Below are positions 43,897 through 60,836 of a stretch of DNA of 64,000 nt, in pieces (position 1 is the stretch's first letter; the number at the start of each line of letters is the position of its first letter). The stretch is from a virus: IMG/VR virus record IMGVR_UViG_3300005830_000045, positions 1 through 64,000 of that record, one strand, 5' to 3'. Below the pieces are notes generated by a model that made no database searches, had not been told where the DNA came from, and saw nothing but the letters and a program-made list of their open reading frames with translations. The position numbers were made by a program, and so were the translations under genes.

Positions 43897-43926
43897 TTGA
43901 CCTTTGAAGCTGTATGGCATTATCCT
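43897..43926 (+). promoter_or_regulatory. Possible promoter of the CobS-like gene
   Basis: TTGACC-N18-TATCCT preceded by A-tracts. Confidence 0.4.
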
Positions 43927-43947
43927 GGATTTATTGGCGCAAACAAA

Positions 43948-45132: not shown

Positions 45133-45243
45133 TTAGATAAATCTTTCCAATAAAACCTAATAAATTCACAAAGTAGCAAAAAAGTTTGTTTTTTTGGTAG
45201 AATTTTTTGGCAAATTCGTTTATGTTTATCTTATCGGCAACAA

Positions 45244-47274
45244 ATGATGAGGCTAAGGATGAAATTAAAGACCAATGCTCGCAGAAACGCACTTGATGGC
45301 CCTTTCACAGCGATAGCAAGGGCCCAAAGTCGTTCCTGGAAAGTCAATATCGTAGCTTCCGGCAGCGTTCTCGCAACAGATGGCAATACTATATATTTTC
45401 CATGGAATAGCGATGACATCGACACTATTCCTTTCAACGTTTTGAATGGATACCTTGACCATGAGGTGGGGCATATCGCAGAAGAAAGGGAGCATGCTAT
45501 AGACGGTCGTGAGACTCCTCTTGAAATCGCAAAGCGTCAAACAAATATCACAAAAAGAATGCTCCTCAATGTATACGAAGACATTCGTATGGAGATAAAA
45601 AGGGGCAAGATTTATCCTGGAGTCGCAGCAAATCTCAAGGCATCTAACGAGCACTCCGTTGGCACCTTTATAAAAAGATTTGGTGATGGCGATGGCATGG
45701 AAAAGGCTAATTTCTGGCACACTTTAGGGTGCGGGATCATCTTTGCCGCTAGGGAACTTGACACCTTTTGGCTTCCAGAGCAGTACGCTCCGTTCATGGA
45801 AATGCTACAGCCTGAAATCGAGGAAAGTAGGCACGTGGTTTGGGCCCAAGACTCGATGGAGCTTGTCGAGAGAACTTTTGAAAAAGTCCGTGAACTAGCT
45901 AAGGATATTGAAGATTGGATGGAAAAGAAGACAGCTCTGAAGAAAGAAGAGAAAGGCGAGTCAGAGTCAAGCGATACAAAGGGCAAGAGTGAAAGCGACA
46001 CGAAGGATGAAGGTGGTGTTGGTGGCCCTAGCGAAGATGGTTCTGACGATGCAACTGCCGAGGATGGTGATGGTGCCTCTGATAGCGCTGAAGGTGGCGA
46101 TCAGGAAGTTGGTGAAGGCGAGGAAAGTGCTAGCGGTGTAGAGGGTGGTGTCAGGCGTGGCGATAACGCCGAAGGCGATACCTCGTTTGGTTCACCCTCT
46201 ACAAGCGCAGAGGACACAAAAGAGGACATGTCTGAAGGCAAAGAAGAAGTGCCATGCGATGGCGCTGAGAAAGCCGCAGAAATCACAGCTGGGGCTTTTC
46301 AAGATGCTGACACCGATGACATCATGTGCGAAGGCAAGAAAGAAATTGAAAAGGCGAGCGAAGATCTTTCTACCTTGCGCGGTGGATACAACCCCTGCCC
46401 CTCTGCCCTTGAGGCTGATCAGTGGATCGTTCCGAAGAAGGGTGAAGAAGCAATTTACAATCAGATCAAGAAGCAGGTCCAGCAGCAGATTTCTGCACTT
46501 CGGTCCAAGTTGATCCACATCATTCGCAGTCGGGCAATTTCTCGCGAGCAATACGAGCAAGACAATGGGAAGCTTGACACTTCTTCGCTTTACCGCTTGC
46601 GCTTGGGCAGTAAGCAGGTATTCAGCAAGACCGTTTCAGGGCAAATGCTTGACACCGCAGTCACGGTGCTCGTGGACCTTTCTGGCTCGATGGGCGATTC
46701 AAATTTTGCCTATTCCAGAGCTTGTTACGCTAGGATGACGGCTGTTGCCCTTGCAGAAACTTTTGAATCAATCAACGTTCCTTTCGAGATAATAGGGTTT
46801 CACAACAGCTACGACATCCCTTTCAAGCCTGATCGCAGTGGAGCGTTCGTGAATAGACTTCCCTTTGAGTATCACGTTTACAAGAGCTTTGAAGAGGTCC
46901 ATCGCTCCGTTCGATGCCGTCTTGTTGGGATAACAGGACGGCAAGAGAACGCTGATGGCGAGGCAATCGTGGGGGTCGCAAGGAGATTGGTTGTTCGTCC
47001 TGAGAGTCGCAAGCTCATGTTCGTTATCAGCGACGGAAAGCCAGTCTGTCCCGGATTGAGTGATGAAGTTGGCTCAAGACATTTGATTGATTCAATCAAA
47101 AAGGTGCGAGGGGCAGGGATTATCCTTTTTGGTATCGGAGTGCAGCATTTGGATATCGTGCGTTACTATGGCGTAGAGCACAGCATTTGCGTGGACAAAC
47201 TTGACAAGATGGCCGAAAACATTTTCAAGGTCGTGCGTTCCGTACTTATCGCAGGCCTCAAAAAGGTGGCGTGA
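45244..47274 (+). CDS. CobT-like vWA protein (HExxH N-domain, acidic linker)
   Basis: DHEVGH, NVYED.R.E, DLSGSM MIDAS, NADGEA, ISDG.P. Confidence 0.88.
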   Translation: MMRLRMKLKTNARRNALDGPFTAIARAQSRSWKVNIVASGSVLATDGNTIYFPWNSDDIDTIPFNVLNGYLDHEVGHIAEEREHAIDGRETPLEIAKRQTNITKRMLLNVYEDIRMEIKRGKIYPGVAANLKASNEHSVGTFIKRFGDGDGMEKANFWHTLGCGIIFAARELDTFWLPEQYAPFMEMLQPEIEESRHVVWAQDSMELVERTFEKVRELAKDIEDWMEKKTALKKEEKGESESSDTKGKSESDTKDEGGVGGPSEDGSDDATAEDGDGASDSAEGGDQEVGEGEESASGVEGGVRRGDNAEGDTSFGSPSTSAEDTKEDMSEGKEEVPCDGAEKAAEITAGAFQDADTDDIMCEGKKEIEKASEDLSTLRGGYNPCPSALEADQWIVPKKGEEAIYNQIKKQVQQQISALRSKLIHIIRSRAISREQYEQDNGKLDTSSLYRLRLGSKQVFSKTVSGQMLDTAVTVLVDLSGSMGDSNFAYSRACYARMTAVALAETFESINVPFEIIGFHNSYDIPFKPDRSGAFVNRLPFEYHVYKSFEEVHRSVRCRLVGITGRQENADGEAIVGVARRLVVRPESRKLMFVISDGKPVCPGLSDEVGSRHLIDSIKKVRGAGIILFGIGVQHLDIVRYYGVEHSICVDKLDKMAENIFKVVRSVLIAGLKKVA

Positions 47275-49142
47275 TGGTCGGCAAACTTTCATCTGTTGAT
47301 CCTCTTGTCCGTGAAATGTATGAAGAAATAGACGCAAAATTTCTTCCATACATCAAATCTAGGGTGTCATCTCTTTCTGGTGTTGAATTCGATGACGCCG
47401 TACAAGAAGCAAGAGTAGCTTTGTTGACCGCGTTGCACGATTATGACTTCAATCGAGCAGGTGGTGATTATCTTCCATTCATGAAGATTGTCCTTCTGAA
47501 TACTTGTCGCGGTCTGTGGCTGAAAGAACGTAGGCGCTCAAAAACGCCTTGGGTCGCAAAACGTGATGGCGAGGATTGGGTTGAAGGCCCATCGAGACCA
47601 CTTAGCATCCAGCAGTCGAATGATTGCGATGGTCAACGTTTGCCTACTTATGATGCCTTGCCTGATGAAAACGCGATTGGCGGAGACCACATGATTTGCC
47701 ATGAGCATTCTTCTATGCGGGTTGAGGATTTCAAAGAGGTGCTTGAGCAGAATTTGAGCGAGTTTGAGCTGGAGGTGTATCGCTGTCGTGTGGATGCTCC
47801 CAAGGCTTTGATTGAGCAAGTAAAGGCGGATGATGGTGACGTCAACAACATAGGTGTTCTTGATATTGCTAAATTTCTTGGCGTTGGAAAGAACAAAGTA
47901 GATTGGGCGCTGTATAAGATAAAGTCTGCATTTACAGAAGTTGCTGAGAGAATACGCTTCAGCGATGTTTTTGGGGACTTGGTAAATAGCTCACAATGGC
48001 CCGTGGTCCACGTCAGCAAAGGATTTGAACGCAATAAAGAGTTTGTTCGGAGTATTATCAAGGACCGAAATTTAAGTGGTCTCGTCCTTGACGAGATTTC
48101 CGAGGAGTGTGAAAGCGGTGCGCGCACTATCATTTCCTATAAATGGGGCGTTGTCGTCTATATCGAGAGGGCAGAAACATGTTGGACGGCAGTCTTGGAA
48201 GGTTCATTCAATCCTCGCAGCGGTGATTTGTTTGGTTCTTGCGGAGCAAGGAAGTTGCTACCGATTGAGGGCTATGGGCAGTTGGCAAAAGATTTGGCAG
48301 ATGCAAGGAGAAAAGGGATGGCTTCTGTGAACGACGACAGTCAATATGATAGTTTGAAGGTTTTGCCGCATTGTATAAGCGAGTACGAGAAAGGAGATTT
48401 GGTTTGCGACGGGGATGAAAATGCAGAGTTTGATCCCTGTTGCGTCCACAGAGACAATTGTGTTGCTCTCCAATTGCGTATGAAGCAAAAGGGGATGAAA
48501 AAGGAGCAGTACGTTGTCGAGAAAACAGACTCAGCTGGCACACCATATTGTGCGCCGAAAAGCTTGATGAGTTTCGGCAAGATTGTTTCCGGCACGATTC
48601 GTAATTACGGTGTGCGCGACGGCAAGGCAACTCGCACCCCCAAGGCTAGGCCCAATAAAAACTCAAAGGCAGTTTCTCGACACAAGGAGTTGGTAGAAAA
48701 GGCCACTTCTGTTGTCGTGGCACGGTCAGAGGGTGCGACTATTATGGATCCTTGGTATGAAAGAGCTTTGGAAATTTTGTGCGAGAAAACCGGTAGAACG
48801 TTTTGTGCAGGCAACGATCCAAGCATAGGACAGTTTTATGCGAAAGACAGGCGTGCCAAAAGCGGATATGTTGGCGTGTATTGCAAGACGGAAAAGGGCA
48901 GGCATGTGGCGTTGTTTCTTCTCATGTACAAGCCTCGAACAACGACTATGGATTTCAAATGGCCTGTGTCTGTCGATGGATTCAAAGGCGTGGGAGAATC
49001 AACGATCAAATTGCTGTCTCCGGTCAAGCATAGTGATGGTGCTTTCGTTTCTATTTCAAAAGGTCTTGACGGGGCAGGAGTATCTCTTGCGGCTGAATCC
49101 CTTTCTCGCATGATTTCAAATGGCACAATAGTGCTTCCTTGA
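47271..49142 (+). CDS. Sigma70-family (SigH/ECF-like) sigma factor with ~400-aa C-terminal extension
   Basis: Region 2: DDAVQEARVALLTALHDYD..F..I..N; region 4: LSEFELEV..DIAKFLGV..NKVDWALYKIK. Confidence 0.72.
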   Translation: MMVGKLSSVDPLVREMYEEIDAKFLPYIKSRVSSLSGVEFDDAVQEARVALLTALHDYDFNRAGGDYLPFMKIVLLNTCRGLWLKERRRSKTPWVAKRDGEDWVEGPSRPLSIQQSNDCDGQRLPTYDALPDENAIGGDHMICHEHSSMRVEDFKEVLEQNLSEFELEVYRCRVDAPKALIEQVKADDGDVNNIGVLDIAKFLGVGKNKVDWALYKIKSAFTEVAERIRFSDVFGDLVNSSQWPVVHVSKGFERNKEFVRSIIKDRNLSGLVLDEISEECESGARTIISYKWGVVVYIERAETCWTAVLEGSFNPRSGDLFGSCGARKLLPIEGYGQLAKDLADARRKGMASVNDDSQYDSLKVLPHCISEYEKGDLVCDGDENAEFDPCCVHRDNCVALQLRMKQKGMKKEQYVVEKTDSAGTPYCAPKSLMSFGKIVSGTIRNYGVRDGKATRTPKARPNKNSKAVSRHKELVEKATSVVVARSEGATIMDPWYERALEILCEKTGRTFCAGNDPSIGQFYAKDRRAKSGYVGVYCKTEKGRHVALFLLMYKPRTTTMDFKWPVSVDGFKGVGESTIKLLSPVKHSDGAFVSISKGLDGAGVSLAAESLSRMISNGTIVLP

Positions 49143-49155
49143 TCATATAAATCTT

Positions 49156-49509
49156 TTGGAGGTTTTTTCGGTGCACGGTGACAGAGACTCATATCACGTG
49201 GCGGCACCGGGAAGAGATAGAGAGGGGTGTCTCGTCCATGCAATACAGGAGTACAGAAGAGTGAAGTTCGGTGACGATGTAATCTTGCGCCGGGGTGGCC
49301 ACCCTGACAAGCGCCCTGGTCAGTTCAGGGATGTGAGGGCCCGCTACATTGGCGCAAGGGGTCACGGGATCTACTGTGAGTTGCTGCAAGACGATCCAGA
49401 CGCTGTTGTCCAACCTAAGACAAAGGGGGGCAAAGGATGGTGGTCTCGCAGCATCATGAGGAGAGGTGATTCTGATCTTGATGGGCCGCCAGAGAAGAGT
49501 GATGAGTAA
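49156..49509 (+). CDS. Hypothetical protein
   Basis: 117-aa ORF filling the gap; start uncertain. Confidence 0.4.
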   Translation: MEVFSVHGDRDSYHVAAPGRDREGCLVHAIQEYRRVKFGDDVILRRGGHPDKRPGQFRDVRARYIGARGHGIYCELLQDDPDAVVQPKTKGGKGWWSRSIMRRGDSDLDGPPEKSDE

Positions 49510-50590
49510 ACCGAGACTCGAATGTGCTGACTGCGGACATCACATTTGGGATCGTAACATCAAAGAGTACCTGGAAGCCGTGAAGAGGAAGCGGGATGAA
49601 GAATTTATGGAAAGAGTAGTGATAATTGGCGGAGGTGTGTCTGGTCTCCTTGCGTCGTATGTTGTGAAACGCTATGGAAGAAGGGTGAAAGTCATAGAGG
49701 AAGCAAAGCCAGGTGGCGACTTTCTTTTGGGAGGTTTGAAGTATATACACAGAACGGTCAGAATGGAAGGTTTATTCAATGAACTTTCACTTCCATGGAG
49801 CCATTATAGGGTCAATGGCGGAATAATGCTGAAGGGGAAAGTTGAACCATATCCGAAATGTCTTCAGTTTATGAGTAAAGAAGAAGCAATGAGGATACAA
49901 GAAGATCATTACAGAAAAACGAGAAAGTCAGAGCCTGGAAAGTTTGGATCAAAGGCCATGAATGATCCGGCAGCGAAAGTTTCTAGGCGGGCAATTCGTT
50001 GTGACTTTGAAGAAATGATTAAAGAATTGGCGAAAAGAGCAGACATAGTCAAAGCTCGTGTTTCTTTTATTGAGTCAAAAAGAAATAGGGTGAAAACATT
50101 TGATGGTGAGTTTATCTATTATGACCGTTTGATCGTAACTATTCCTCTTTGGATTGTTCATCATATTGCTGACTTTTATGTTCCGCAAGGGATGGCGATG
50201 TCTCTGAACATTTTGGATGTTATTCCAAATAGAGATAGATATGCTCGATGGGATTACATTTACACCCCTTACACTCCGTCAAGCGCGGTTCATCGTTTGA
50301 GCCCAAGTGATCATGGATATAGCATCGAGATCAATGGTGATTGGGCCCAACAAGAAAGAGCTACGTGTAACGATTTGGCCTTTCTTTTCCCTGACGGGTT
50401 TGTCGTTCGTGGTGCTAAGATTGGCACAAAGGGGCATTTGCTTGAGCTCGTGGTAAAGCCTGATTGGCCTGAAAATGTTACGCCTTTGGGCCGTTTCGCG
50501 CAATGGGATCCACGAGCAACAACTGATGTCACTTTGGACAATATTCATAAGATGGCAAAGGGCTGGGGATGGAAAAAGATTCCTTATTGA
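49502..50590 (+). CDS. FAD-dependent oxidoreductase (UDP-galactopyranose-mutase/amine-oxidase-like fold); start 49502 or 49607
   Basis: VVIIGGGVSGL..E..PGG..G.KYIH, YDRLIVTIPL, LGRFAQW. Confidence 0.8.
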   Translation: MSKPRLECADCGHHIWDRNIKEYLEAVKRKRDEEFMERVVIIGGGVSGLLASYVVKRYGRRVKVIEEAKPGGDFLLGGLKYIHRTVRMEGLFNELSLPWSHYRVNGGIMLKGKVEPYPKCLQFMSKEEAMRIQEDHYRKTRKSEPGKFGSKAMNDPAAKVSRRAIRCDFEEMIKELAKRADIVKARVSFIESKRNRVKTFDGEFIYYDRLIVTIPLWIVHHIADFYVPQGMAMSLNILDVIPNRDRYARWDYIYTPYTPSSAVHRLSPSDHGYSIEINGDWAQQERATCNDLAFLFPDGFVVRGAKIGTKGHLLELVVKPDWPENVTPLGRFAQWDPRATTDVTLDNIHKMAKGWGWKKIPY

Positions 50591-51495
50591 GAATGTGGGA
50601 GATTCAAAAGCAACAACAAGCTGATCTTGGTCTTGATCCTCGTTACATGAACGGCGTGAATAAACGTGTTGCCGCTGGTGAGTTGATACAGGGGCTGTAC
50701 GAGGAGTTGTCAGAGCTTCAACGGTATGCCTCGACATATAAGAGGCACATTCTGTCGGTTGAAGGCGTCAACAAAGGGAATGTCACGGAAGAAATCGTTG
50801 ACGTGTTAAAACTTCTCATTTCGGTGGCCCAGCTCCATGGCATTTCTCCGGTTGATCTTGTGAGCGCTTTTGAGAGAAAGACACGAGTGATAGCAGCTAA
50901 GGCAGAGGGGCAACGGGTTGAGTTGTGTGTAAACACGAAAGTCCTCTGCGTGGATATGGATGATGTCATCGCTGATCTTTCCCCTTGGGTGAAGGAGCAA
51001 CAGGAACTAAGAGGTGATGCCCCGATGAATGCCAAGACTATGCAGTTGGTGGAAGCGTGGAAAGGTGATTGGTATCGTTTAGGACGTTTTTTGGAATTGA
51101 GGCCGATTGAAGGCGCATCTACAGCGCTTGGCGTTGTGAAAAGTTGGGGGTGGAAAGTTATCATTATCACGGCAAGACCGCAATGGCAATACAAGCGTAT
51201 TTACGCAGACACTCTTGAGTGGCTTCGGGCGCACGAAGTTCCGCATGATTTGATACTTTTCAATAAGGACAAAGTTGAAGCTATATATGATCACATATCT
51301 CCTGCTTGGCCGGTTGCTTTTGTTGAAGATCAGGAAAGAAACGCTGTTCAACTCAGCGCGGCTGGAGTAAAGGTGTTATTATTCGATACGGAACGCAATC
51401 AAGATTTCGTGTTGCCAAACGGCGTGCAAAGGGTTGCGAACTGGACAGAAGTTCTTTTAGCTTTGGAAAAAAGAAAGAAAGGGGGGCGCCGATGA
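50569..51495 (+). CDS. All-alpha NTP pyrophosphatase (dUTPase/MazG-like) fused to HAD 5'-nucleotidase
   Basis: EELSEL..EEIVDV..AFERK; VDMDDVIAD, ITAR, T.EWL, K, FVED. Confidence 0.82.
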   Translation: MEKDSLLRMWEIQKQQQADLGLDPRYMNGVNKRVAAGELIQGLYEELSELQRYASTYKRHILSVEGVNKGNVTEEIVDVLKLLISVAQLHGISPVDLVSAFERKTRVIAAKAEGQRVELCVNTKVLCVDMDDVIADLSPWVKEQQELRGDAPMNAKTMQLVEAWKGDWYRLGRFLELRPIEGASTALGVVKSWGWKVIIITARPQWQYKRIYADTLEWLRAHEVPHDLILFNKDKVEAIYDHISPAWPVAFVEDQERNAVQLSAAGVKVLLFDTERNQDFVLPNGVQRVANWTEVLLALEKRKKGGRR

Positions 51496-52448
51496 ATGAA
51501 AAGCCCAAAGTCACCTTGCTTACTTGGACCATGAATCCTTTGGAAACGGTTTACTCTGTTTGGCAAGCCTCGAAAAGCGAGGATGAGCTGGTTACGCCTT
51601 TCAATGTGAAAACATCAGTCTCGCAGGAAGAAGTTGAAAGACTTTTCAGGGCTGTAATTGCCCAGCGTATTCCGATTGGGGAGCATGTTGATTTCGTTTT
51701 CATGCTTGAAAACGTCAGTGTGAGTTGGCGCGAACAAGCTGTGCGACACAGGATTGGAACGCTTCCAAGCCCAGAGCGTGTCGGCGTGGACATTGTCATG
51801 GATCAAATTCCAGATTTGCCGGACAGTTCATTTTGGTCGCAGTCGATGAGAATACAAAATATGAGCAACTTCGCCAGAAAAGGCGCTTACAGGTTGCCTG
51901 AGACAGTTATAGAGGCAGGGCCTGAAATGGTTTCTCTTTATAAAGAAACTATGAGGTTGATCGAGAGGACATATGCGGTTTTGGTTGAAGAAGGTGTTCC
52001 TATGGAGGATGCCCGTGAACTTATTCCTCTTGGCGCCCAACACAGAATTAGTTGGCGGCTCAATATAGGTTCCCTGCAACATATCGTTGGGAAGCGAGGG
52101 TGTTGGATTCTCCAGCTTGGAATTTGGGGGCCTGTGATTACGGGGATGGTCAACGAATTGGCGACAAAGGTCCATCCGGTTTTCAGAGAATTGGTTGCGC
52201 CTCCTTGTTTGAAAGGCGATGAGTTTATGGGGTGTATTTACCATGAGGAGTGTCGCAGGCGTTATACTGGTGATGATGCGCTTCCGCCTTGCCCGCTTCA
52301 TCTTACCTATCATGAATTGCCTGCCAAGGGGTTGGAATACGTTGAAGCACAATTCTTATATCCTCGTATGGAAGAAATGGAGGAACGAGCGGAGCAGTAT
52401 CGCGTTTTTTGGGGCAGAGATCCGTATACAGGAGAAAGGTTGTGTTAG
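51492..52448 (+). CDS. thyX: Divergent flavin-dependent thymidylate synthase-like protein
   Basis: EH..F.F..VS...Q.VRHR, SQSMR, GVPMEDARELIP, N..SL....R. Confidence 0.8.
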   Translation: MNEKPKVTLLTWTMNPLETVYSVWQASKSEDELVTPFNVKTSVSQEEVERLFRAVIAQRIPIGEHVDFVFMLENVSVSWREQAVRHRIGTLPSPERVGVDIVMDQIPDLPDSSFWSQSMRIQNMSNFARKGAYRLPETVIEAGPEMVSLYKETMRLIERTYAVLVEEGVPMEDARELIPLGAQHRISWRLNIGSLQHIVGKRGCWILQLGIWGPVITGMVNELATKVHPVFRELVAPPCLKGDEFMGCIYHEECRRRYTGDDALPPCPLHLTYHELPAKGLEYVEAQFLYPRMEEMEERAEQYRVFWGRDPYTGERLC

Positions 52449-52655
52449 ATGGGACGAAAGATTCATTGGTCTGGCGGGGTGATGTTGTCTATGGTTAGGA
52501 TGCTTCGTGGGTATCCTTGTTGCTGTTCTGGAGACAAGGCGCTCAAAATCAGGTCTTTTGGGAACCAAACAGAAAAACGTGAAGACGTAACATGCAAGGA
52601 TTGCTTAGGCATTCTAAAAAGGCAGGATAAGTACCATGAAGATCACAACTGTTGA
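52449..52655 (+). CDS. Small Cys/His-rich protein
   Basis: H..PCCC..VTCKDC; tightly packed with its neighbours. Confidence 0.5.
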   Translation: MGRKIHWSGGVMLSMVRMLRGYPCCCSGDKALKIRSFGNQTEKREDVTCKDCLGILKRQDKYHEDHNC

Positions 52656-53388
52656 TTTGGGAGGAATATGCGTGGCGAAAGTTGTTGATAGTCGCACAGG
52701 AGAATTTGATCGTGCTCGTATTAGAGATAATGCTCCGCATTCGCATTATGCTCTTGATCGTGAGGATATTCACATTGAGCTTGCTGCCTTTGAAAAGGTT
52801 TGCAGGAGAATAGGAGAGCGTAGTGATTGGACCGTATTCGAGCCATTTGGTGGTTCTGGTTGGCATTCTTCTTTGATCAGGCGTTTGGTTGGTCCAAGAA
52901 AGCAATTTGTGGTTGATATTTCAAAGGATTGCATTCGTTCTGTTTGTGCTGGTTTGAAAGGCAATCGTGGTGTGATTGCTATTTGCGGAGATGGCTGTGA
53001 TTACCTAAGGCATTCCAAGTGGAAATTCAATTGGATTCACGCTGATTTCAATATTTGGACGGCTGAAGACATGAGTCTTGACCCTGAGTTGCGTGGCACT
53101 TGGAATGCTCTCTTTGAAATGGCAACGGATTGTATTACTTTCACGGACACTACGCATTATCACCTGGCTAATAGTCCTGTTGTGTATTGGTATGATGAAG
53201 TTGATCGTTGGATCAAGGTCACGAAGGGTTGGAAAGTTGATTTCGTGTTCGATTGGGGGCCAGCGGCCATGCATGTGCTTTCTCCTTTGAAGGAGAAAGA
53301 AAAAGAGGTTTTCGCAAAACCGCTCATAGTACAGGTCAGGGAACCTATGAAGGTAACAGTTTTGAGAGAGGAGAGCAGTGATGAGTAA
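52636..53388 (+). CDS. Class I SAM-dependent methyltransferase-like protein
   Basis: VFEPFGGSG, VVDIS, CGDG, IHADFN. Confidence 0.7.
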   Translation: MKITTVDLGGICVAKVVDSRTGEFDRARIRDNAPHSHYALDREDIHIELAAFEKVCRRIGERSDWTVFEPFGGSGWHSSLIRRLVGPRKQFVVDISKDCIRSVCAGLKGNRGVIAICGDGCDYLRHSKWKFNWIHADFNIWTAEDMSLDPELRGTWNALFEMATDCITFTDTTHYHLANSPVVYWYDEVDRWIKVTKGWKVDFVFDWGPAAMHVLSPLKEKEKEVFAKPLIVQVREPMKVTVLREESSDE

Positions 53389-54739
53389 TCAGAATGAAGA
53401 CACGACCATTGACACTATGGTATTCAACAAGCGTTTGATGAATAACATTGTCAGACTTCCTTTTGAAGTTGAAACAGCTCGTGGTTCTGCTATTCGTACT
53501 GTTCAGGGGCACGTTTTGTTGGATTTCTGGGGCGATGAAGGCGTATGTAGTCTTGGATACAACACAGAAGAATACAGAAGGATAGTGGATAATTTTCACA
53601 GCAGTGGACAACCGCATCAGTTGCCAGATGTTTATCCCCAGACCTCCAGATTCAACGCAGCAGAGAAGATTTGCCAGATGACAGATATGGACCGCATCTT
53701 TTTCGCAAATAGCGGTACAGAAGCGAATGAAGCAGCCATCAAAATTGCAAGAAAATTTTGGTGGGATAAGTATAGCAATATATATAGAGAAGGAAGAATA
53801 AAGTCAAATAAAGCGTACGCACGGCGGCATATAGTTCTCACAATTGCCGGAAACTTTCATGGCAGAACTGGGCTAAGCAGCGCGGCAAGCGACCCAAGGG
53901 TCAGTCCGTATCACCATTGGGGGTTTGGCCCGAAGCCAAAAGGTTTTGGCGTTATCGACGATAAGACTTTCCTTCAAGTCGTTACAGACGGCGATGTCCA
54001 TGAAGATTATCCGATTGAACCTGATTGGTCCAACGTTGCTGCTGTGATTCTTGCTCCGGTTTTGGGAAACAATTTGGTAAAGACATATTCTAAAAGCTTT
54101 TGGGAGGAACTTGGAGCTTTGAGGAAGAAGCACGGATTTCTTATTATCCACGATGACGTTCAAGCCGGAAGCGGAAGAGCAGGTTGGCCAGCAACGTATC
54201 AAGGGATTTCTGTCTTTGATTCGAGGTTTGAAAGCTTGGTCAAACCAGACATATTGTGTCTCGGGAAAGGCATGGCTCTTGGCTATCCAATGAGCGCGAT
54301 GCTTGCCTCTGAAGAAGTTGCTTCCGCTTTTACTCCCGGTGTCCACTTCAACACTTTTGGAGGCAGCCCTTTCGTTTGTTATCTTGCCGAGCAATATTAT
54401 AGTTGGCTTGAATTGGAACTTCCGAAAGTCAGAGATTTGGGCGAGGCAATTCGTTTGCGTTTCTCTGAAATGGCCTGGATCAAGGAGCATGACGGGTCTG
54501 GTTTGCTCAACGCTTTCACGCCTAATTTCGGGAAGTATGGATATGATGGTTTTGAGTTTTGTCACAAGGCTCGTGATTTCGGCATTAGCATTGTGACCCA
54601 TCGACGATATGGGCCAATTCGATTCACGCCTCCAATGAACGTTGCTCCTGATGAGATTGCTACCGCCTTTATTGCGTTGGAAAGAACACACAAGTTTTTG
54701 ACAAAAGAACACAGAAGCTTTAGGTTGGAGGATGAATAG
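53378..54739 (+). CDS. Class III PLP-dependent aminotransferase (ArgD/ornithine AT-like)
   Basis: FFANSGTEANEAAIKIAR, FHGRT, DDVQAG.GR.G, PDILCLGKG, HFNTFGGSP. Confidence 0.92.
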   Translation: MMSNQNEDTTIDTMVFNKRLMNNIVRLPFEVETARGSAIRTVQGHVLLDFWGDEGVCSLGYNTEEYRRIVDNFHSSGQPHQLPDVYPQTSRFNAAEKICQMTDMDRIFFANSGTEANEAAIKIARKFWWDKYSNIYREGRIKSNKAYARRHIVLTIAGNFHGRTGLSSAASDPRVSPYHHWGFGPKPKGFGVIDDKTFLQVVTDGDVHEDYPIEPDWSNVAAVILAPVLGNNLVKTYSKSFWEELGALRKKHGFLIIHDDVQAGSGRAGWPATYQGISVFDSRFESLVKPDILCLGKGMALGYPMSAMLASEEVASAFTPGVHFNTFGGSPFVCYLAEQYYSWLELELPKVRDLGEAIRLRFSEMAWIKEHDGSGLLNAFTPNFGKYGYDGFEFCHKARDFGISIVTHRRYGPIRFTPPMNVAPDEIATAFIALERTHKFLTKEHRSFRLEDE

Positions 54740-55319
54740 CGTAGTGATACTGGACGGGTTGAATGCAAGCGGAAAGACATTCTGCGCGGAAACGCTTTCT
54801 GAATTGCTTCCAGCCCCAATAATACGTCCATTTAGAGAAAACAATGAGCATCTTGGAAGAGAAGATAAAGGCGCTCAAGAAAACCTACACAAACTTGGCA
54901 TCCCGGCCAATACGTTTGTCGATGATGCTTATACGTCTGACTTTTTGGTTCAAACAGGAGTAAGCGCTGTTTTGGACCGTTCTATGGGTTCTGGCATTGC
55001 CTATGGCCTTCTGTACGGAAACATTGCGAATATGAAGCACGCCAGAGAATTGTTGTCGCTTTGGCAAGAGAGCATCACGAGGTATAACGGAAACATTTTG
55101 TATGTGTATATGATTGCTCGGAAAGAAGTCAGGAAGAAAAGGTGTAAAGCTGAAGGAAGATGGCACCCTAACGCTTCACAGGACAAACTGCTTTATAAAG
55201 TCTTTGATCTTGTTTTTAGGTGTATTGAATTTGAAAAGATATTGGTTGATTCTTCCGATATAGCCCAGGAATGCATTGGTCCGGTTGTTGCGAAGAAGAT
55301 AATCAAAAGACTGAGGTGA
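54732..55319 (+). CDS. Nucleoside monophosphate kinase (thymidylate-kinase-like)
   Basis: VILDGLNASGKT, VLDRS..S..AY. Confidence 0.78.
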   Translation: MNSVVILDGLNASGKTFCAETLSELLPAPIIRPFRENNEHLGREDKGAQENLHKLGIPANTFVDDAYTSDFLVQTGVSAVLDRSMGSGIAYGLLYGNIANMKHARELLSLWQESITRYNGNILYVYMIARKEVRKKRCKAEGRWHPNASQDKLLYKVFDLVFRCIEFEKILVDSSDIAQECIGPVVAKKIIKRLR

Positions 55320-55322
55320 TTC

Positions 55323-55685
55323 ATGTTTAAGTCGTTAGAAGAAATGAGAGAGCAACTTCGCAGAGGGATTGCAACCAGGTGTTCAAAAGTGGTGGATTCA
55401 AGGGAAGATTCAAGCTCTGGAAGCGAGACAATAGCTGGGCAGATGTCTCTGGTTGGTGATCCAGTTGCAGACTTTGAAAACGCAGACACGCGCTTGTATC
55501 TTGATGAGGAAGAAGAAGAAAAGGAGAAAGGTCCATGGAGCGGTACGCTTCCTGCTGTTGTGAAGCACGTTGAGGAGAAGTATGGGCCAATAAAGGGCAG
55601 ACACGTTGATATTATTGTTGTTGATGATATCATTGTCGATAAAGAAGATATCAGAGCGAGGGGGAAGAATAGTGGGAAAAGCTGA
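55323..55685 (+). CDS. Hypothetical protein
   Basis: GAGGTG SD and ATG; 120 aa. Confidence 0.5.
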   Translation: MFKSLEEMREQLRRGIATRCSKVVDSREDSSSGSETIAGQMSLVGDPVADFENADTRLYLDEEEEEKEKGPWSGTLPAVVKHVEEKYGPIKGRHVDIIVVDDIIVDKEDIRARGKNSGKS

Positions 55686-56034
55686 TGTGGATGAATGGTT
55701 TGAAGCAGACCTTGAAATACGTGAAGCGATTGATATTCGCGGTGGAAAGTATCCAGGGATTTCTCTTTCTCCAACCTTTGAGTTGAAAGGGCCATTGCCT
55801 CTGCGAGCCAAAAGTAGATTTCGCCATACTAAGTATTTGATCTTGGAAGATAAATCAGATGCACTTTTGAGTTTTGGCAAGCATTCCGGTAAATTTGTTT
55901 CTGCGGTTGCTTCGATTGAGCCTGATTATCTTAGATGGATTTTGAAAGAGGAGTTTTCTGCCGATTTGAAAGAAGTTGTCGATAATGTTTTGAATGGAAC
56001 CAAGCCTGTTGACATGAAGTTTCGTGGAAAGTAA
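55672..56034 (+). CDS. Protein with FGKH/YxG (DUF3820 / ExoX C-terminal-like) motif
   Basis: LSFGKHSGK.V..V....PDYLRWIL; GTG 55672 is the probable start. Confidence 0.65.
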   Translation: MGKADVDEWFEADLEIREAIDIRGGKYPGISLSPTFELKGPLPLRAKSRFRHTKYLILEDKSDALLSFGKHSGKFVSAVASIEPDYLRWILKEEFSADLKEVVDNVLNGTKPVDMKFRGK

Positions 56035-56069: not shown

Positions 56070-59000
56070 ATGCATGATTCAGAAAAGAAAGAAGATTTTG
56101 TTCATCTCCACACTCATAGTGATTTGAGTCAGCTTGACGGCTGCGGAAAGATTTCTGATTACGTGGACGCAGCCCATAAGCGTGGAAATCCAGCAATCTC
56201 GTTCACTGATCATGGAACTATGAGAGGATACATGACGCAGTATGAGGAGTGCAAGAGGGCTGGAATCAAGCCAATCTACGGGGTTGAATTCTACGTTTCT
56301 CGAAATATGTACCGTAAGGGTATCACCGCTGAAGAAAAGACGGAACTTTCAAAGGGCAGGACCAAGGCGCAAGCGAAGGAGGTGATTGCGCAATACGAAA
56401 TAAATGAAGGGATCAGAAAGCGTTGGCACCTGACGGTGCACGCCGAAACAGAAGCGGGGCTGAAAAACCTTTTCAGACTGACCTCGAAAGCTTTCATTGA
56501 AGGTTTTTACTACAAGCCTCGAATAGATATTGAAACGCTCTGCGAGCACAGCGAAGGTTTGATTGTTTCTTCTGGTTGCGTTGGAAGTCCAGTCAATAGT
56601 AATTGGTTTGAAGGGAATAGGCGTTATGCCGTTGAAGTATCAGATAAGTTGCATGAGGTGTTCCAAGACCGTTATATGATTGAAATTCAGCCGCACGATA
56701 TAGCAGAACAGCTGGAAGCGAATAAGTTGGCTGTGAAACTCAGGAAAAGATATGGCGGGAAATCGCGTCTTGTCGCGACGCAAGATGCTCATTATATCAA
56801 CAAAAGTGATGCCGTTCACCACGATGTTCTTCTTTGCATAGGCACAGGAAGTTATCTTTCAGACCCAAAGCGTATGAAGTTTGACGGCGATGAATTTCAT
56901 ATGCGAACACGTCGTGAGATGATTCGAGCATTCATGAAGTGGCACAGCGGATTGACCAAGGGCCAAATAAAAGAGGCATTGGACACCACGATGCTCTTCC
57001 ACGAGCGTTGCAACGTCAAACTCAATATTGACTATCACGCAGCCTTGCTTCCTGATCCTGGTATCCCTCCTGAATATGTCGATGATTTCTCGTATTTGAA
57101 AGATTTGTGCATTCAAGGTTGGAGCTGGAGAGAAATACCGGCAAGGGCTTTAGCGTATTCGGTGAAACACGGGGTGCCTTACGAGGAAGCTTTGTCGCTT
57201 TACAGCAAACGTTTGAAGCATGAACTTGGAGCTATAAAGAAGCAAAGATTTGTTCCGTATTTTATTCTAATACACGACTTGTATCGTTGGGCACGCGGTG
57301 AGAATATAATGGTTGGCCCTGGTCGTGGAAGCGTAGCAGGTTGCCTAATTGGGTATCTGATCGGATTGACTTCTGTTGACCCTATTGATCATGGGTTGAT
57401 CTTTGAGCGATTCATCAACCCAAATCGTATCGACATGCCTGATATTGATATGGACTTTGAAGACAGGAGAAGGCAAGAGGTTTTTGCATACCTCAGGAGG
57501 AAGTACGGTGAAGACAAAGTTTGCCAAATTGCCACCGTTGGCAAGCTATCCGGGAAGCAGTGTCTCAAGGATGTTTCTCGCGTTCTACAGGTTCCATACG
57601 CGGAAGTCAACCAGGTGACAAATTCCATCATCGAGCGTTCTAGCGGGGATGAACGGGCATCGCAGACAATTGAAGACTCTTTCAAGGAGTTTGAAATATG
57701 TCGAGATTTTGATAAGAGATACCCGAAAGTTTTGTATCATTCAAAACGTCTTGAAGGCATGGCCAAAAACTTGGGAATACACGCTGCAGGAGCTGTTGCC
57801 TCTCCGGTGCCGCTGACAGATATCATCCCTCTGGAAGTGAGGAAGCATAATGGGAAAGATGTTATAGTCTCAGCCGTGGACATGTACGGCGTTGCTGCGA
57901 GTGGTTTGGTAAAGCTCGATGTTTTAGGTTTGCGCACACTCACCGTTTTGAAAGAAGCGACAGAAGCGATAGAAGAAAGGCATGGCAGGAAGATTGACCT
58001 TGAATCAGCAGAAGTTGATTTGAGCGACCCGAAAGTTTTGAAGGGGTTCACAGATCACGATTATGGAGGCGTTTTTCAGTATGATACGCCTTCAGCGGAC
58101 AAGGTCTGTTCAGGCGTCAAGTTCTCTTCTTTCGAGGACATTGCCGCCATGACAGCTCTCAACAGGCCAGGCACATCCAGAAGCGGTTTGGCATCCCGAT
58201 ATGTGGACAGAAAAAAGAATCCAGAGAAAGCAAAGAAACACGATTTCCATCCAGCTGTTTCCGAGATAACGAAGGACACGTTGGGCATTATCGTGTACCA
58301 AGAGCACGTCATAAAGATATTCACAGACATCGCTGGATTTGCTCCGGCAACGGCTGACTCTTTGCGTAAAACAATCGCTAAAAAGATTGGCGATGAAACC
58401 ATGGGGAAGGAACGTGCCAACTTTGTTGCTGGAGCTGTTGAGAAAACGGGAATGGACGAGAAAACCGCACATAAGATTATGGACGCGATAACTTTTTTCG
58501 GGTGCGTTCCTTGGTGGACGCAAATAGCAACGCCATTTGGGCCAAGGGCAATTGATTCTTTGTCTGATGGTGATGAAATTTACAGCGTTGAAGAATGCGG
58601 GAAAGTTGTCATCAATACCATAAAGACGGTCACAAGCACAGGGCCAAAGGATTTGTATCGAATAACTGCGAGCGGTTTTATGGTTGATTCTTCCAACGAC
58701 CACTATTGGGAGTGCATGGAAGGAGGTTACAAAAAGGCTAGTGAGCTTTGTGAAGGTGAATTCATATCGTATGTTATGGGGCATGGATTCAAATCATCCG
58801 AAAAAGAAAAGCTTTTGCTTGAAGAAGGATTGCGCAAGGGAAGTGTTTTGCCGAGGATTGTGCAGCCTTCATTATCAGAGACAGTACAGAAAGAAGCGGA
58901 CAGAAAAGGGCAACCCTGTGAGCAGTGCGCACAACAAGTGGCCCGGAGCACCGGGCAAGGGTTGGAAAAGGGGCAAAAACAAGAATACGCATCCAGGGAT

Positions 59001-60836
59001 AGCAGCGCACGCGAAAGCTATGATGGGAGAGTTGAATCCGGCTTGGACAGACTGGAGTTATTCAGAATTCAAAATAATGAAAGATACGCTGCTGGAAAAG
59101 ATAAAGGTCTGCCAAAGGTGCGGTTGCCCTCCGGACGAGGGAAGCGATGCCCCGAATGTGAGAGTTTTGCACGTCCACCACAAGAACAGAAACAAAAAGG
59201 ACAATTCGGCGGACAACTTGGAAGTTCTCTGTCAATCTTGTCACAGCAAGGAGCATTGGGAGGAAAAGCACTCTGGTGGATTCGGGTGGATGAAATTCGT
59301 CAAATAGCAGATAGATCAACGCACAGAAGTGGTTGCCCTGCTAGGGATATTGAGTGTTATGACATAGAGGTTGATTCTAGTCCATGTAATTATGTGGCTA
59401 ACGGAATAATATGCCATAATTCCTATGGATTCAATAAGAGCCATGCAACAGCTTATGGGATGATAGCGTTTTGGTGCATGTTTCTCAAGACCTATTATCC
59501 TCTTGAGTTTTATTGGTCGCTGTTGAAAAACGAGCCAGACCGTGTCCGGATACAACAGTTGGCGAAACACGCAAAGAAGAAAGGCATATCATTCTTGTCG
59601 CCTTCTGTGAACACTTCCAAGGCGCACTTTGCCATAGATGATAGTCGTGGAGCAATTCGAGGTTCCCTTGTAGACATAAAAGGAGTTGGGACAGCGGCAG
59701 CGAAAGCTATTATGGCGACGCAGCCTTATACTGACTTTTTTGACTTCCTTGATCGAGTAGACAAGAGAAAGGTTCACAAAGGCGTCGTGGCTTCTCTTGT
59801 CCGGGCAGGAGCACTGGATGATTTGGTCCCCAATCCTCGGTGGCTTATTGAGAACATGGAAGCATTCTGGAAGCAAGTTGCGAAGAAGTCAGAGGAAGCG
59901 CAGAAAGAAGCAAGGCGGATGATTGAGGCGTCAAAGGATGAAAAGTCTTGGGACGCAGAGGAAAAGCAGCTTATCGCTTCCAAGGTGAACCCTCTTGCTT
60001 TCGGGAAGCACCCGATGGATACTTACAAGGATTTCTTGAATAAAAACGTGAAGATAAAGATTGCAGATATGTCAGCTGGTGATTTCTATGAGAGGAATGA
60101 TGGAAGAATAGTCCTTGTCGGTGGAACTATAGTGGAAGTGAAACTCAATCAAATAGGTGACTTTCACACTGGAAGGCTGCCGACTGAAGAGGAACGTGAG
60201 CGTATGTTTTGGGGGAAACGTTATGCTAACGTAAACATAGAAGATATTGGCGGAGTTCAGAATAGAATCAAGTTTGATTGGGACGTTTACCCTGGTATGC
60301 GTCCTGTTATTGAATTAGGTTTGGGTGCTCCGGTGCTCGTGATGGCCTCTGTGAATGCGAAATTTGAGAACATGAGGGCTTTTTTCGCAGTCGATTTGGA
60401 GGGGATGAGAAAGAAGTTGATTTCGGGGAAACCATTGGGCATGTGGGAAAGCATTGTGACCGGAAACCATCCTGTGAAGCACATAAAGGCTAAGAGCGAT
60501 GCCGTCAAAAGAGCCATGTGGACCAATAAATATTACAGGATGTCTCCGAAAGGAGGTCCATTTTGGGGTGTTGTGACGAACATTCGTTTGAAATACGACA
60601 AGCGCGGTCAACTTATGGCTTTCTTTGGTCTTATTGGCGGCAACGGTTTCATGATTGATGTAATTTGCTTTGCTTCTCAATGGGAATTTGTCAAAACTGT
60701 AATCAGCGTTGAACAGGTGTTGAAGATAGAAATAGGCAGATCAAGAGAAAGAGGCAGAGGAGTGTCTCACATTTTCAACGGTGGCTTGGTAAAAAGTTTC
60801 AAGTCTGTTTGTGAAAAGGAGAAAGAAGATGAGTAA
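56070..60836 (+). CDS. dnaE: DNA polymerase III alpha subunit, intein-containing
   Basis: FVHLHTHS..S.LDG, TDHG, GPGRGS, MPDIDMDF, GIHAAG, KLDVLGL, YQE, YGFNKSHA. Confidence 0.97.
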   Translation: MHDSEKKEDFVHLHTHSDLSQLDGCGKISDYVDAAHKRGNPAISFTDHGTMRGYMTQYEECKRAGIKPIYGVEFYVSRNMYRKGITAEEKTELSKGRTKAQAKEVIAQYEINEGIRKRWHLTVHAETEAGLKNLFRLTSKAFIEGFYYKPRIDIETLCEHSEGLIVSSGCVGSPVNSNWFEGNRRYAVEVSDKLHEVFQDRYMIEIQPHDIAEQLEANKLAVKLRKRYGGKSRLVATQDAHYINKSDAVHHDVLLCIGTGSYLSDPKRMKFDGDEFHMRTRREMIRAFMKWHSGLTKGQIKEALDTTMLFHERCNVKLNIDYHAALLPDPGIPPEYVDDFSYLKDLCIQGWSWREIPARALAYSVKHGVPYEEALSLYSKRLKHELGAIKKQRFVPYFILIHDLYRWARGENIMVGPGRGSVAGCLIGYLIGLTSVDPIDHGLIFERFINPNRIDMPDIDMDFEDRRRQEVFAYLRRKYGEDKVCQIATVGKLSGKQCLKDVSRVLQVPYAEVNQVTNSIIERSSGDERASQTIEDSFKEFEICRDFDKRYPKVLYHSKRLEGMAKNLGIHAAGAVASPVPLTDIIPLEVRKHNGKDVIVSAVDMYGVAASGLVKLDVLGLRTLTVLKEATEAIEERHGRKIDLESAEVDLSDPKVLKGFTDHDYGGVFQYDTPSADKVCSGVKFSSFEDIAAMTALNRPGTSRSGLASRYVDRKKNPEKAKKHDFHPAVSEITKDTLGIIVYQEHVIKIFTDIAGFAPATADSLRKTIAKKIGDETMGKERANFVAGAVEKTGMDEKTAHKIMDAITFFGCVPWWTQIATPFGPRAIDSLSDGDEIYSVEECGKVVINTIKTVTSTGPKDLYRITASGFMVDSSNDHYWECMEGGYKKASELCEGEFISYVMGHGFKSSEKEKLLLEEGLRKGSVLPRIVQPSLSETVQKEADRKGQPCEQCAQQVARSTGQGLEKGQKQEYASRDSSARESYDGRVESGLDRLELFRIQNNERYAAGKDKGLPKVRLPSGRGKRCPECESFARPPQEQKQKGQFGGQLGSSLSILSQQGALGGKALWWIRVDEIRQIADRSTHRSGCPARDIECYDIEVDSSPCNYVANGIICHNSYGFNKSHATAYGMIAFWCMFLKTYYPLEFYWSLLKNEPDRVRIQQLAKHAKKKGISFLSPSVNTSKAHFAIDDSRGAIRGSLVDIKGVGTAAAKAIMATQPYTDFFDFLDRVDKRKVHKGVVASLVRAGALDDLVPNPRWLIENMEAFWKQVAKKSEEAQKEARRMIEASKDEKSWDAEEKQLIASKVNPLAFGKHPMDTYKDFLNKNVKIKIADMSAGDFYERNDGRIVLVGGTIVEVKLNQIGDFHTGRLPTEEERERMFWGKRYANVNIEDIGGVQNRIKFDWDVYPGMRPVIELGLGAPVLVMASVNAKFENMRAFFAVDLEGMRKKLISGKPLGMWESIVTGNHPVKHIKAKSDAVKRAMWTNKYYRMSPKGGPFWGVVTNIRLKYDKRGQLMAFFGLIGGNGFMIDVICFASQWEFVKTVISVEQVLKIEIGRSRERGRGVSHIFNGGLVKSFKSVCEKEKEDE
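58503..59420 (+). mobile_element. Intein in DnaE (306 aa)
   Basis: FFG|CVPWWTQIAT (block A), SSNDHYW (block B), CYDIEV..NYVANGIICHN|S (blocks F/G); removal restores FFGSYGFNKSH. Confidence 0.93.
58771..59307 (+). CDS. HNH endonuclease overprinted in the +1 frame inside the intein (start 58771 or 58783)
   Basis: C..DC....RGLC..HY Zn finger, GELNPAW, CQRC..LHVHHKNRNKKDNSADNLEVLCQSCHSKEH. Confidence 0.88.
   Translation: MLWGMDSNHPKKKSFCLKKDCAREVFCRGLCSLHYQRQYRKKRTEKGNPVSSAHNKWPGAPGKGWKRGKNKNTHPGIAAHAKAMMGELNPAWTDWSYSEFKIMKDTLLEKIKVCQRCGCPPDEGSDAPNVRVLHVHHKNRNKKDNSADNLEVLCQSCHSKEHWEEKHSGGFGWMKFVK

Follow-up and report, generated by a model that had tools for sequence, protein, structure and literature searches.

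We analysed a 64,000-base stretch of phage DNA, referred to here as the window (bases 1-64000 of the 80,479-bp IMG/VR record IMGVR_UViG_3300005830_000045, which CheckV estimates to be 78% complete), and found a block of seven plus-strand open reading frames (ORFs) at positions 49502-55319, between a CobT-type gene and the gene for a DnaE-type polymerase. We give an even chance to the reading that this block encodes a pre-replicative pathway to an amine-bearing 5-substituted deoxyuridine (dU). What the analysis shows directly is how the genes are arranged, which folds and catalytic motifs their products keep and that five of them are conserved as a block; the substrates, the products and the order of the steps are all our inference. 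A first-pass annotation of this DNA had proposed a base-modification pathway comprising all seven genes. That reading agrees with what we observe and with the logic of the nucleotide enzymes, while its specific product and the membership of all seven genes are unproven.

Proteins encoded by the block

All seven ORFs are present and, as had been described, form an unbroken run in which neighbors overlap by 4-22 nucleotides or abut. The flavoprotein and fusion genes overlap by 22 nucleotides (50569/50590), the fusion and ThyX-like genes share an ATGA (51492/51495), and the ThyX-like gene abuts a Cys-rich ORF (52448/52449). This ORF overlaps the p250 gene by 20 nucleotides (52636/52655), p250 overlaps the aminotransferase gene by 11 (53378/53388) and the aminotransferase gene overlaps the kinase gene by 8 (54732/54739). 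Promoter and terminator scans of the block gave results no better than shuffled sequence, with no terminator signal above chance.

The protein at the center of our reading is a divergent ThyX-fold protein (51492..52448, plus strand). It matches Thy1 at 70.3 bits (gathering threshold 24.8) over profile positions 2-167 of 191, and its AlphaFold2 (AF2) model (pLDDT 90) was matched by Foldseek to Thermotoga maritima ThyX with a target-normalised TM of 0.72-0.76 at 20-21% identity. It fails the thyX equivalog TIGR02170 (49.6 bits against a cut-off of 87.9), aligning to profile positions 85-181 alone. Both RHR and SQSMR are present with about 25 extra residues between them, so that the compact RHRxxSxxxxSxR(Y) motif is not matched; the AF2 model shows little order for this insertion, which interrupts the substrate loop. 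The residue after SxR is Ile, not Tyr. In a MAFFT alignment the canonical GH...E segment, which lines the folate/flavin site, is replaced by QRIPxxE, and a C-terminal extension carries four near-invariant Cys residues (C204, C239, C248 and C267).

We compared 58 members of this family, reaching down to about 32% identity, and found R80, R85, W115, Q117, R120, R175, R202, W212, P237 and W307 to be invariant and H86 nearly so. R175 and R202 align with R147 and R174 of T. maritima ThyX (the AR and LR positions of 1kq4), two residues that contact deoxyuridine monophosphate (dUMP) at its phosphate and on the O4 side of its uracil. Since the Arg at the R174-equivalent position is invariant, the alignment argues for a uracil rather than a cytosine nucleotide as the putative substrate.

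The family comprises 513 members in a collection of 5.8 billion proteins, all metagenomic and on contigs of at most about 116 kb, which fall into 224 clusters at 50% identity (E < 1e-30). A family pattern scan of 185,579 species genomes gave no match. When the ThyX-like protein and the aminotransferase were used as tblastn queries, no close relative in culture was recovered (best identities ≤28% and ≤30%, respectively), and the aminotransferase matches were mostly bacterial fragments. Four representatives, P0241 (669 residues), P0242 (657), P0259 (871) and P0304 (648), have double the usual length, and their profile matches are broken into two or three segments, a pattern that resembles inteins or other insertions.

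The first gene of the block (49502..50590, plus strand) encodes a small flavin adenine dinucleotide (FAD)-binding flavoprotein with the fold of UDP-galactopyranose mutase (UGM), protoporphyrinogen oxidase and amine oxidase. Pfam detects its N-terminal dinucleotide-binding motif alone (NAD_binding_8, 22.9 bits against a cut-off of 21.9); the N-terminal GxGxxG FAD motif and the two-domain fold align over the whole chain. An AF2 model built on 40 family members (pLDDT 93) was most similar to UGM 4dsg (VIA-align Z 27.4, rmsd 3.3, 323 of 327 residues), followed by protoporphyrinogen oxidases (Z 22-24) and amine and amino-acid oxidases (Z 17-20), with Foldseek E-values down to 9e-16. The fold is thus nearest to a sugar-nucleotide mutase and not to an alcohol oxidase, which does not support the redox step sketched in the first-pass annotation. 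Invariant Arg, Lys, Tyr and His residues suggest a predicted anionic ligand or substrate. Relatives begin at the equivalent of ATG 49607, which is an alternative start; the ATG at 49502 has a purine-rich leader and overlaps the upstream stop codon. The family holds 152 proteins; all were found in metagenomic data, on contigs of phage size that do not exceed about 110 kb.

The second gene (50569..51495, plus strand) encodes a fusion of a predicted all-alpha, MazG-like nucleoside triphosphate pyrophosphatase domain (residues ~1-115) and an NT5C-type HAD 5'(3')-deoxyribonucleotidase (~120-300). Its C-terminal half matches NT5C at 41.9 bits (cut-off 24.8) through a DMDDV nucleophile motif; VDMDDVIAD aligns with VDMDGVLAD of human cdN (also mdN), and D129 and D131 are invariant. 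In the N-terminal half an EExxE...ExxD motif is found, with E45, E46, D78 and K81 invariant in 7 orthologues. Thus the HAD half of the dNTPase-HAD fusion recognised in the first-pass annotation holds, whereas the N-terminal half scores below the Pfam cut-offs in this phage (MazG 14.4 bits against 22, PRA-PH 16.2 against 21.3) and above them in the L004 orthologue (24.9 and 23.1 bits). In one orthologue the N-terminal domain has a weak match to dimeric dUTPase (dUTPase_2).

The last gene (54732..55319, plus strand) encodes a P-loop kinase of the deoxynucleoside kinase (dNK)/thymidylate kinase (TMPK) superfamily (phrog_761, 8e-8), in which G9, G14, K15, D82, R83 and R137 are invariant. A profile of 11 orthologues found SPbeta YorR 2axp best (5e-12), then dNK (4e-7) and TMPK (7e-7), and the Pfam Thymidylate_kin score lies below its cut-off (16.7 bits against 27). 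At this superfamily level of assignment the putative substrate is a nucleoside or a monophosphate.

The gene before it (53378..54739, plus strand) encodes a class III (omega-type) pyridoxal phosphate (PLP) aminotransferase derived from the ArgD-like group. It matches Aminotran_3 at 175.2 bits (cut-off 30.5), and its best PDB matches are AcOAT, SOAT and OAT, to which it aligns at the Schiff-base Lys, at DxxQ and FHGRT and at the C-terminal Arg; LGKG, DDVQAG, FHGRT and NTFGG align to the motifs of AcOAT 2eh6. The score is under the cut-offs of named transaminases, the best being the argD subfamily (179 bits against 410), and ten orthologues behave likewise (best-model scores of 113-309 bits against cut-offs of 372-552), with the argD subfamily always on top. 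The PLP Lys and both substrate-anion (carboxylate-binding) Arg residues of the AcOAT/OAT group, whose enzymes act on aldehydes and amines, are kept. Both Arg residues would fit an aldehyde that has an anion at its far end, for instance the phosphate of a nucleotide; an amino-acid semialdehyde fits equally. The aminotransferases have diverged faster than their neighbors, the proteins of this phage and L020 sharing 33% identity as against 66% for the ThyX-like protein.

The remaining two ORFs lie outside the conserved core. The protein p250 (52636..53388, plus strand; 250 residues) is the product of an accessory gene of the subclade nearest this phage and is a candidate class I S-adenosylmethionine (SAM) methyltransferase. 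No significant Pfam, NCBIfam or PDB sequence match was obtained. Its motif I (ExFGGSGW) and an ADFN at the motif IV position are invariant in 5 homologues, and Atlas leads point to class I methyltransferase clusters (feature score 0.91-0.92, TM 0.54-0.62, model pLDDT 0.63). The SAM methyltransferase identity given to it in the first-pass annotation is thus backed by motif I and the fold leads but not by a sequence family match, and we regard it as probable at most. Homologues lie between the fusion and ThyX-like genes in L014/L018, L015/L016 and L021, and three genes 5' of the fusion gene in L071. The 68-residue ORF with six Cys (52449..52655, plus strand) is a putative gene unique to this phage; tblastn and jackhmmer searches of 68 related loci recovered no homologue, and there was no Pfam or PHROG match.

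Conservation in related phages

A first IMG/VR scan recovered eight relatives, and in all of them the flavoprotein, fusion, ThyX-like, aminotransferase, kinase, ExoX-like and DnaE genes are syntenic. A wider scan with family profiles gave 68 ThyX-like loci. The five core genes (flavoprotein, fusion, ThyX-like, aminotransferase and kinase) lie together beside DnaE in 27 of the 68, including the window; these represent about 20 distinct phages, in which ThyX-like identity falls to about 40%. The aminotransferase and flavoprotein genes therefore do accompany the nucleotide genes in relatives, as the first-pass annotation expected. Since the Cys-rich ORF is unique to this phage and p250 limited to a subclade, we rejected the idea of all seven genes as one conserved set.

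Within the block the aminotransferase gene precedes the ThyX-like gene in some phages and follows it in others; the five-gene set is rearranged but never dispersed. In one further locus, L071, a very divergent flavoprotein occupies the equivalent position (hhalign 91.6%). Other genes come and go: L019 has a 471-residue NAD-dependent epimerase/dehydratase between the ThyX-like and aminotransferase genes (L019:9774-11189), and L040 a 257-residue sulfotransferase after the kinase gene (L040:11488-12261). So five genes are the core, and the remaining block genes are variable and putatively tailoring functions. A combinatorial pattern of tailoring genes has been described for thymidine hypermodification clusters (PMC8989533). 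A blastn search of the block against 50,697 phage records gave no match.

The aminotransferase and flavoprotein genes are absent from 39 of the 68 loci, and 35 of these 39 belong to PolA-type phages. There the ThyX-like gene follows genes for AAA_24, nucleoside-deoxyribosyltransferase-like, HD 5'-deoxynucleotidase and DUF6378 proteins, often with a radical SAM/SPASM enzyme or a short-chain dehydrogenase in addition. Both phage backbones thus combine a ThyX-like protein, a nucleotidase and an all-alpha pyrophosphatase-type domain with variable redox or radical enzymes, which hints at nucleotide tailoring. Three PolA-type loci (L037:6751-9933, L050:319-3330 and L054:1759-6124) each encode two different non-canonical Cys-tail ThyX paralogues, which in L050 and L054 lie on either side of a radical SAM/SPASM gene. 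The loop insertion is missing from the shorter paralogue, whose motif is RxHRHxSFFSxSHQ.

A second, canonical ThyX is encoded in the same genome outside the window (G000:C1:70215-72400; L003:7215-9400), together with a dCMP deaminase and a 184-residue ORF without Pfam match, near an amidase gene. This ThyX (71741-72400) passes the thyX equivalog (109.4 bits against 87.9) and has the standard motifs, its compact motif reading RHRLASYAQESTRY. No ThyA was found in this genome. A second Thy1 gene was seen in this record only, of 16 related records checked, and we rejected dual ThyX as a trait of the whole lineage. Since a phage that already has one thymidylate synthase gains little from a second, the canonical and divergent pair suggests different products; that the two copies are redundant is unlikely. 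The pair also offers a natural side-by-side comparison within one genome.

The best cultured matches to the ThyX-like protein are in Pbunavirus; they cover the C-terminal extension and have about 26% identity to the protein of this phage. Pseudomonas phage PB1 gp61 aligns to the ThyX-like family profile (hhalign 99.2%), Cys positions included, and is the sole thymidylate-synthase-type gene product in PB1, in which no ThyA was found. The PB1 module consists of gp68, an FAD protein (L082:6620-7621); gp61; gp59, a HAD phosphatase (L082:9958-10998); gp58, an exonuclease; and gp57, a DnaE-type polymerase. The gp68 protein (~330 residues, annotated as hypothetical) resembles the flavoprotein family in its N-terminal FAD motif and in a GRFAxW signature at the C-terminus, and gp59, annotated as polynucleotide kinase/phosphorylase, is by our analysis a HAD phosphatase with an unassigned C-terminal domain. 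Pbunavirus phages PB1, F8 and 14-1 therefore resemble the phage studied here in having a Cys-tail ThyX relative, an FAD protein, no ThyA, and a HAD phosphatase and a DnaE-type polymerase that follow in the same order. However, the aminotransferase is missing from PB1, as is a dNK/TMPK-type kinase from its block, no MazG-like domain was recognised, and gp61 is without the ~25-residue insertion, has RTR rather than RHR and matches Thy1 over almost its full length (108 bits).

In virion DNA of the Pbunavirus phages F8 and 14-1 about a quarter of thymidine is replaced by hypermodified thymidines of 362 U and 390 U (2025 preprint, PMC12191111). They were read as sugar-alcohol and pentose derivatives in a TG context, and their biosynthesis genes were not named (PMC12191111). 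By our calculation both masses agree with a condensation, with loss of water, of 5-hydroxymethyl-dU and either erythritol or a pentose. Since PB1 has no ThyA-type hydroxymethylase, gp61 would be the obvious candidate for the source of the one-carbon unit, with post-replicative thymidine oxidation as the alternative. The connection of gp61 and gp68 to the Pbunavirus modification is one that we draw here and not a published result.

Proposed pathway and alternatives

In the pathway that we propose, the divergent ThyX-fold enzyme would bind dUMP and attach a one-carbon unit to C5 by means of its flavin, giving a product at the hydroxymethyl or exocyclic-methylene level rather than thymidine monophosphate (dTMP). 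The flavoprotein and the ArgD-derived omega-aminotransferase would then make an amine-bearing 5-substituted dUMP. The simplest route would run from 5-hydroxymethyl through 5-formyl to 5-aminomethyl; an MnmEG/MnmC-like capture of an amine followed by oxidative trimming could lead to the same product. In the subclade of this phage p250 may N-methylate it. The dNK/TMPK-type kinase would phosphorylate the product towards the triphosphate, the MazG-like/HAD fusion would hydrolyse the competing canonical deoxynucleoside triphosphate (dNTP) and monophosphate (dNMP), and the phage DnaE would incorporate the product. Since the genome also makes dTMP with its canonical ThyX, thymidine is probably replaced only in part. 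The logic of a synthase, a dedicated kinase and a clearing enzyme, on which the first-pass annotation built, agrees with the pyrophosphatase-like domain, the deoxynucleotidase, the ThyX fold with its putative dUMP-binding Arg residues and the dNK/TMPK-type kinase.

A broader and more detailed claim would be that ThyX-fold proteins of many phages serve a second function: the flavin-dependent production of hydroxymethyl-level dUMP, which in the present DnaE-phage lineage is then oxidised and transaminated as a nucleotide to 5-aminomethyl-dU, N-methylated in a subclade, and polymerised. We advance it as a tentative possibility, rather doubtful in this full form. If true, no earlier example would exist of a thymidine substitute with an amine being made before replication, and the claim would point to candidates for the missing biosynthesis genes behind the thymidine hypermodifications of therapeutic Pbunavirus phages.

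Several findings weigh against the proposed pathway. The nearest fold to the flavoprotein is a non-redox sugar-nucleotide mutase, and alcohol oxidation is atypical of the superfamily. The usual substrates of ArgD-type class III enzymes are amino-acid semialdehydes. PolA-type phages that have neither the aminotransferase nor the flavoprotein also encode members of the ThyX-like family, and all close relatives of the module come from uncultured phages. A quick tree places the aminotransferase-linked ThyX-like proteins in roughly one clade, so that the co-occurrence is deep and stable yet amounts to about one evolutionary event. The canonical ThyX in this genome conflicts with a fusion enzyme that would destroy dTTP and dTMP. 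The records of 15 relatives, of which 12 reach a completeness of 90% or more, contain no Thy1 gene besides the ThyX-like one, and ThyA was absent from all five of these records that were tested, two of which have a dCMP deaminase; because of this the ThyX-like gene could be the thymidylate synthase of those phages. Lastly, the Pbunavirus modification is found in a TG context, implying a post-replicative step (PMC12191111).

The mutase-like fold, the L019 epimerase/dehydratase and the sugar-like, sequence-specific precedent in Pbunavirus lead to a different explanation, namely that the ThyX-like protein supplies 5-hydroxymethyl-dUMP while the flavoprotein and aminotransferase, with an epimerase/dehydratase in some phages, make a donor, an amino-sugar or amino-polyol, for transfer to the DNA once it has been replicated. 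We consider this unlikely, although it is the best of the alternatives. UGM is the top structural match of the flavoprotein (Z 27.4 against 23.8 for the next hit), Pbunavirus combines a related ThyX with a GRFAxW flavoprotein, and its modified thymidines have masses that fit a polyol or pentose on 5-hydroxymethyl-dU in a TG motif (PMC12191111). However, we recognised in the block neither a glycosyltransferase nor a 5-hydroxymethyl-dU DNA kinase nor a base transferase, although no profile search aimed at them was made, and sugar aminotransferases normally belong to the DegT family and not to the ArgD type. The kinase and the fusion that clears dNTP and dNMP are also better explained by a modified nucleotide pool.

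It is also conceivable, but in our judgement distinctly unlikely, that the block provides ordinary dTTP, with the MazG-like domain converting dUTP to dUMP, ThyX making dTMP and the kinase dTDP, and with an aminotransferase and flavoprotein that are merely linked and serve host amino-acid or polyamine metabolism. The single Thy1 gene of the 15 relatives fits this explanation, as do the conserved dUMP-binding Arg, the weak dimeric dUTPase match in one fusion orthologue and the ThyX-like proteins of PolA-type phages, which lack the aminotransferase. Against this, the added canonical ThyX of the present genome would be redundant, and a 5'-deoxynucleotidase fused to a pyrophosphatase would waste dUMP or dTMP. 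The aminotransferase and flavoprotein genes stay in the block through its reordering down to about 40% ThyX-like identity, the flavoprotein family was found only in metagenomic sequences on phage-sized contigs, and the ThyX-like protein fails the thyX equivalog cut-off.

We regard as very improbable a supporting role in which the flavoprotein and aminotransferase feed the ThyX-like protein with a folate-independent one-carbon donor (formaldehyde from amine oxidation) or with electrons through the four Cys, to give dTMP or 5-hydroxymethyl-dUMP: the QRIPxxE replacement at the folate/flavin site, the solved ThyX structures with formaldehyde and N5-carbinolamine flavin (7ndw and 7ndz), the near-invariant C204 two residues past the R174 equivalent and the amine-oxidase superfamily fold of the flavoprotein are compatible with it, but it is purely inferential, PolA-type phages and Pbunavirus carry Cys-tail ThyX proteins without the aminotransferase, and the dedicated kinase and clearing fusion are left unexplained.

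Surrounding genes and comparison with known systems

All sizeable ORFs in the window are on the plus strand. Its genes include a replication module (SF2 helicase, DnaC-like loader, DnaB, primase and the AAA/VWA pair described next) and genes for an HU-like protein, RecA and a tape-measure protein, and by its gene content the source is a tailed phage; no tRNA gene was found in the window, which therefore gives no clue to the host from this side. On the 5' side of the block a MoxR/CbbQ-type AAA ATPase and CobT-like VWA pair (window 43897-47274) is conserved in nearly all relatives. Directly 5' of the block a 623-residue protein (47271..49142, plus strand) is kept in relatives as two adjacent genes (tblastn, L004-L009). 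It has a weak Sigma70_r2 match at its N-terminus and Atlas leads to Sigma70_r2/r4 clusters, and a PDB sequence search gave no usable match. A role as a DNA-level transferase was rejected, sigma-factor leads alone having been obtained; the protein is probably regulatory context outside the pathway enzymes.

The first-pass annotation placed the block just before DnaE. The two are near each other, but two small ORFs intervene and DnaE starts at 56070. One encodes an acidic protein of 120 residues (55323..55685, plus strand), undetected in relatives by tblastn; the other encodes a small protein with an ExoX-like C-terminal motif (55606..56034, plus strand; ExoX-like_C, 34.8 bits), a conserved neighbor just 5' of DnaE (tblastn, L004-L009). 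The DnaE-type replicative polymerase itself (56070..60836, plus strand; 1588 residues) has DNA_pol3_alpha, PHP, finger and HHH_6 domains and is the presumed consumer of the nucleotide pool made by the block. Its residues 837-1117 have a weak Pfam Intein_splicing match, below the cut-off, and a 207-residue ORF (58684-59307) lies within this intein-like stretch on the same strand in another frame.

Replacement of bases in phage DNA is a known counter to restriction and CRISPR. The Bacillus phages SPO1, SP8 and phi-e, which contain 5-hydroxymethyl-dU, and PBS2, which contains dU, combine a C5 synthase acting on dUMP, a dedicated kinase and the hydrolysis of canonical dNTP and dNMP. The block described here shares with them this logic of synthase, kinase and clearing enzyme in the service of a phage polymerase. 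However, the SPO1-type phages use a ThyA-family hydroxymethylase and have no aminotransferase or flavoprotein step, whereas here a ThyX-fold protein is found and no ThyA-family gene.

The post-replicative phages M6, ViI, PaMx11 and PhiW-14 are similar in their amine-bearing C5 substituents, their PLP enzymes and their combinatorial tailoring genes (PMC8989533); in PaMx11 an FAD-dependent, MnmC1-like enzyme yields 5-aminomethyl-dU (PMC8989533). These phages act on DNA, begin with a 5-hydroxymethyl-dU DNA kinase and an amino-acid:DNA transferase, and use PLP enzymes that are decarboxylases, whereas the companions in the present block are nucleotide-pool enzymes. In Pfam and PHROG scans no 5-hydroxymethyl-dU DNA kinase or aGPT-Pplase was named among the ORFs at 37-64 kb, for which no dedicated profile search was made.

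A further parallel is the tRNA mnm5U pathway (MnmEG and MnmC), a mechanistic likeness discussed in PMC8989533. There a flavin- and folate-dependent transfer of a one-carbon unit to C5 is followed by an FAD oxidoreductase that exposes the aminomethyl group and by a SAM methyltransferase, which would correspond in order to the ThyX-like protein, the flavoprotein and p250. The tRNA pathway differs in its RNA substrate and in having no aminotransferase, and no homology to MnmE, MnmG or MnmC was found in our proteins.

The first-pass annotation did not recognise this combination of genes from characterised systems, and this holds for the literature that we searched, where no description of a ThyX-aminotransferase phage pathway was found. 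To our knowledge, every C5-pyrimidine route described so far begins with a ThyA-family enzyme, the amine being introduced only once the DNA has been replicated. A nucleotide-pool route that uses a ThyX-family enzyme and a transaminase would, if true, explain at least 220 sequence clusters now annotated as plain thymidylate synthase and represent new enzyme chemistry for modified dNTPs, useful in the synthesis of functionalised DNA.

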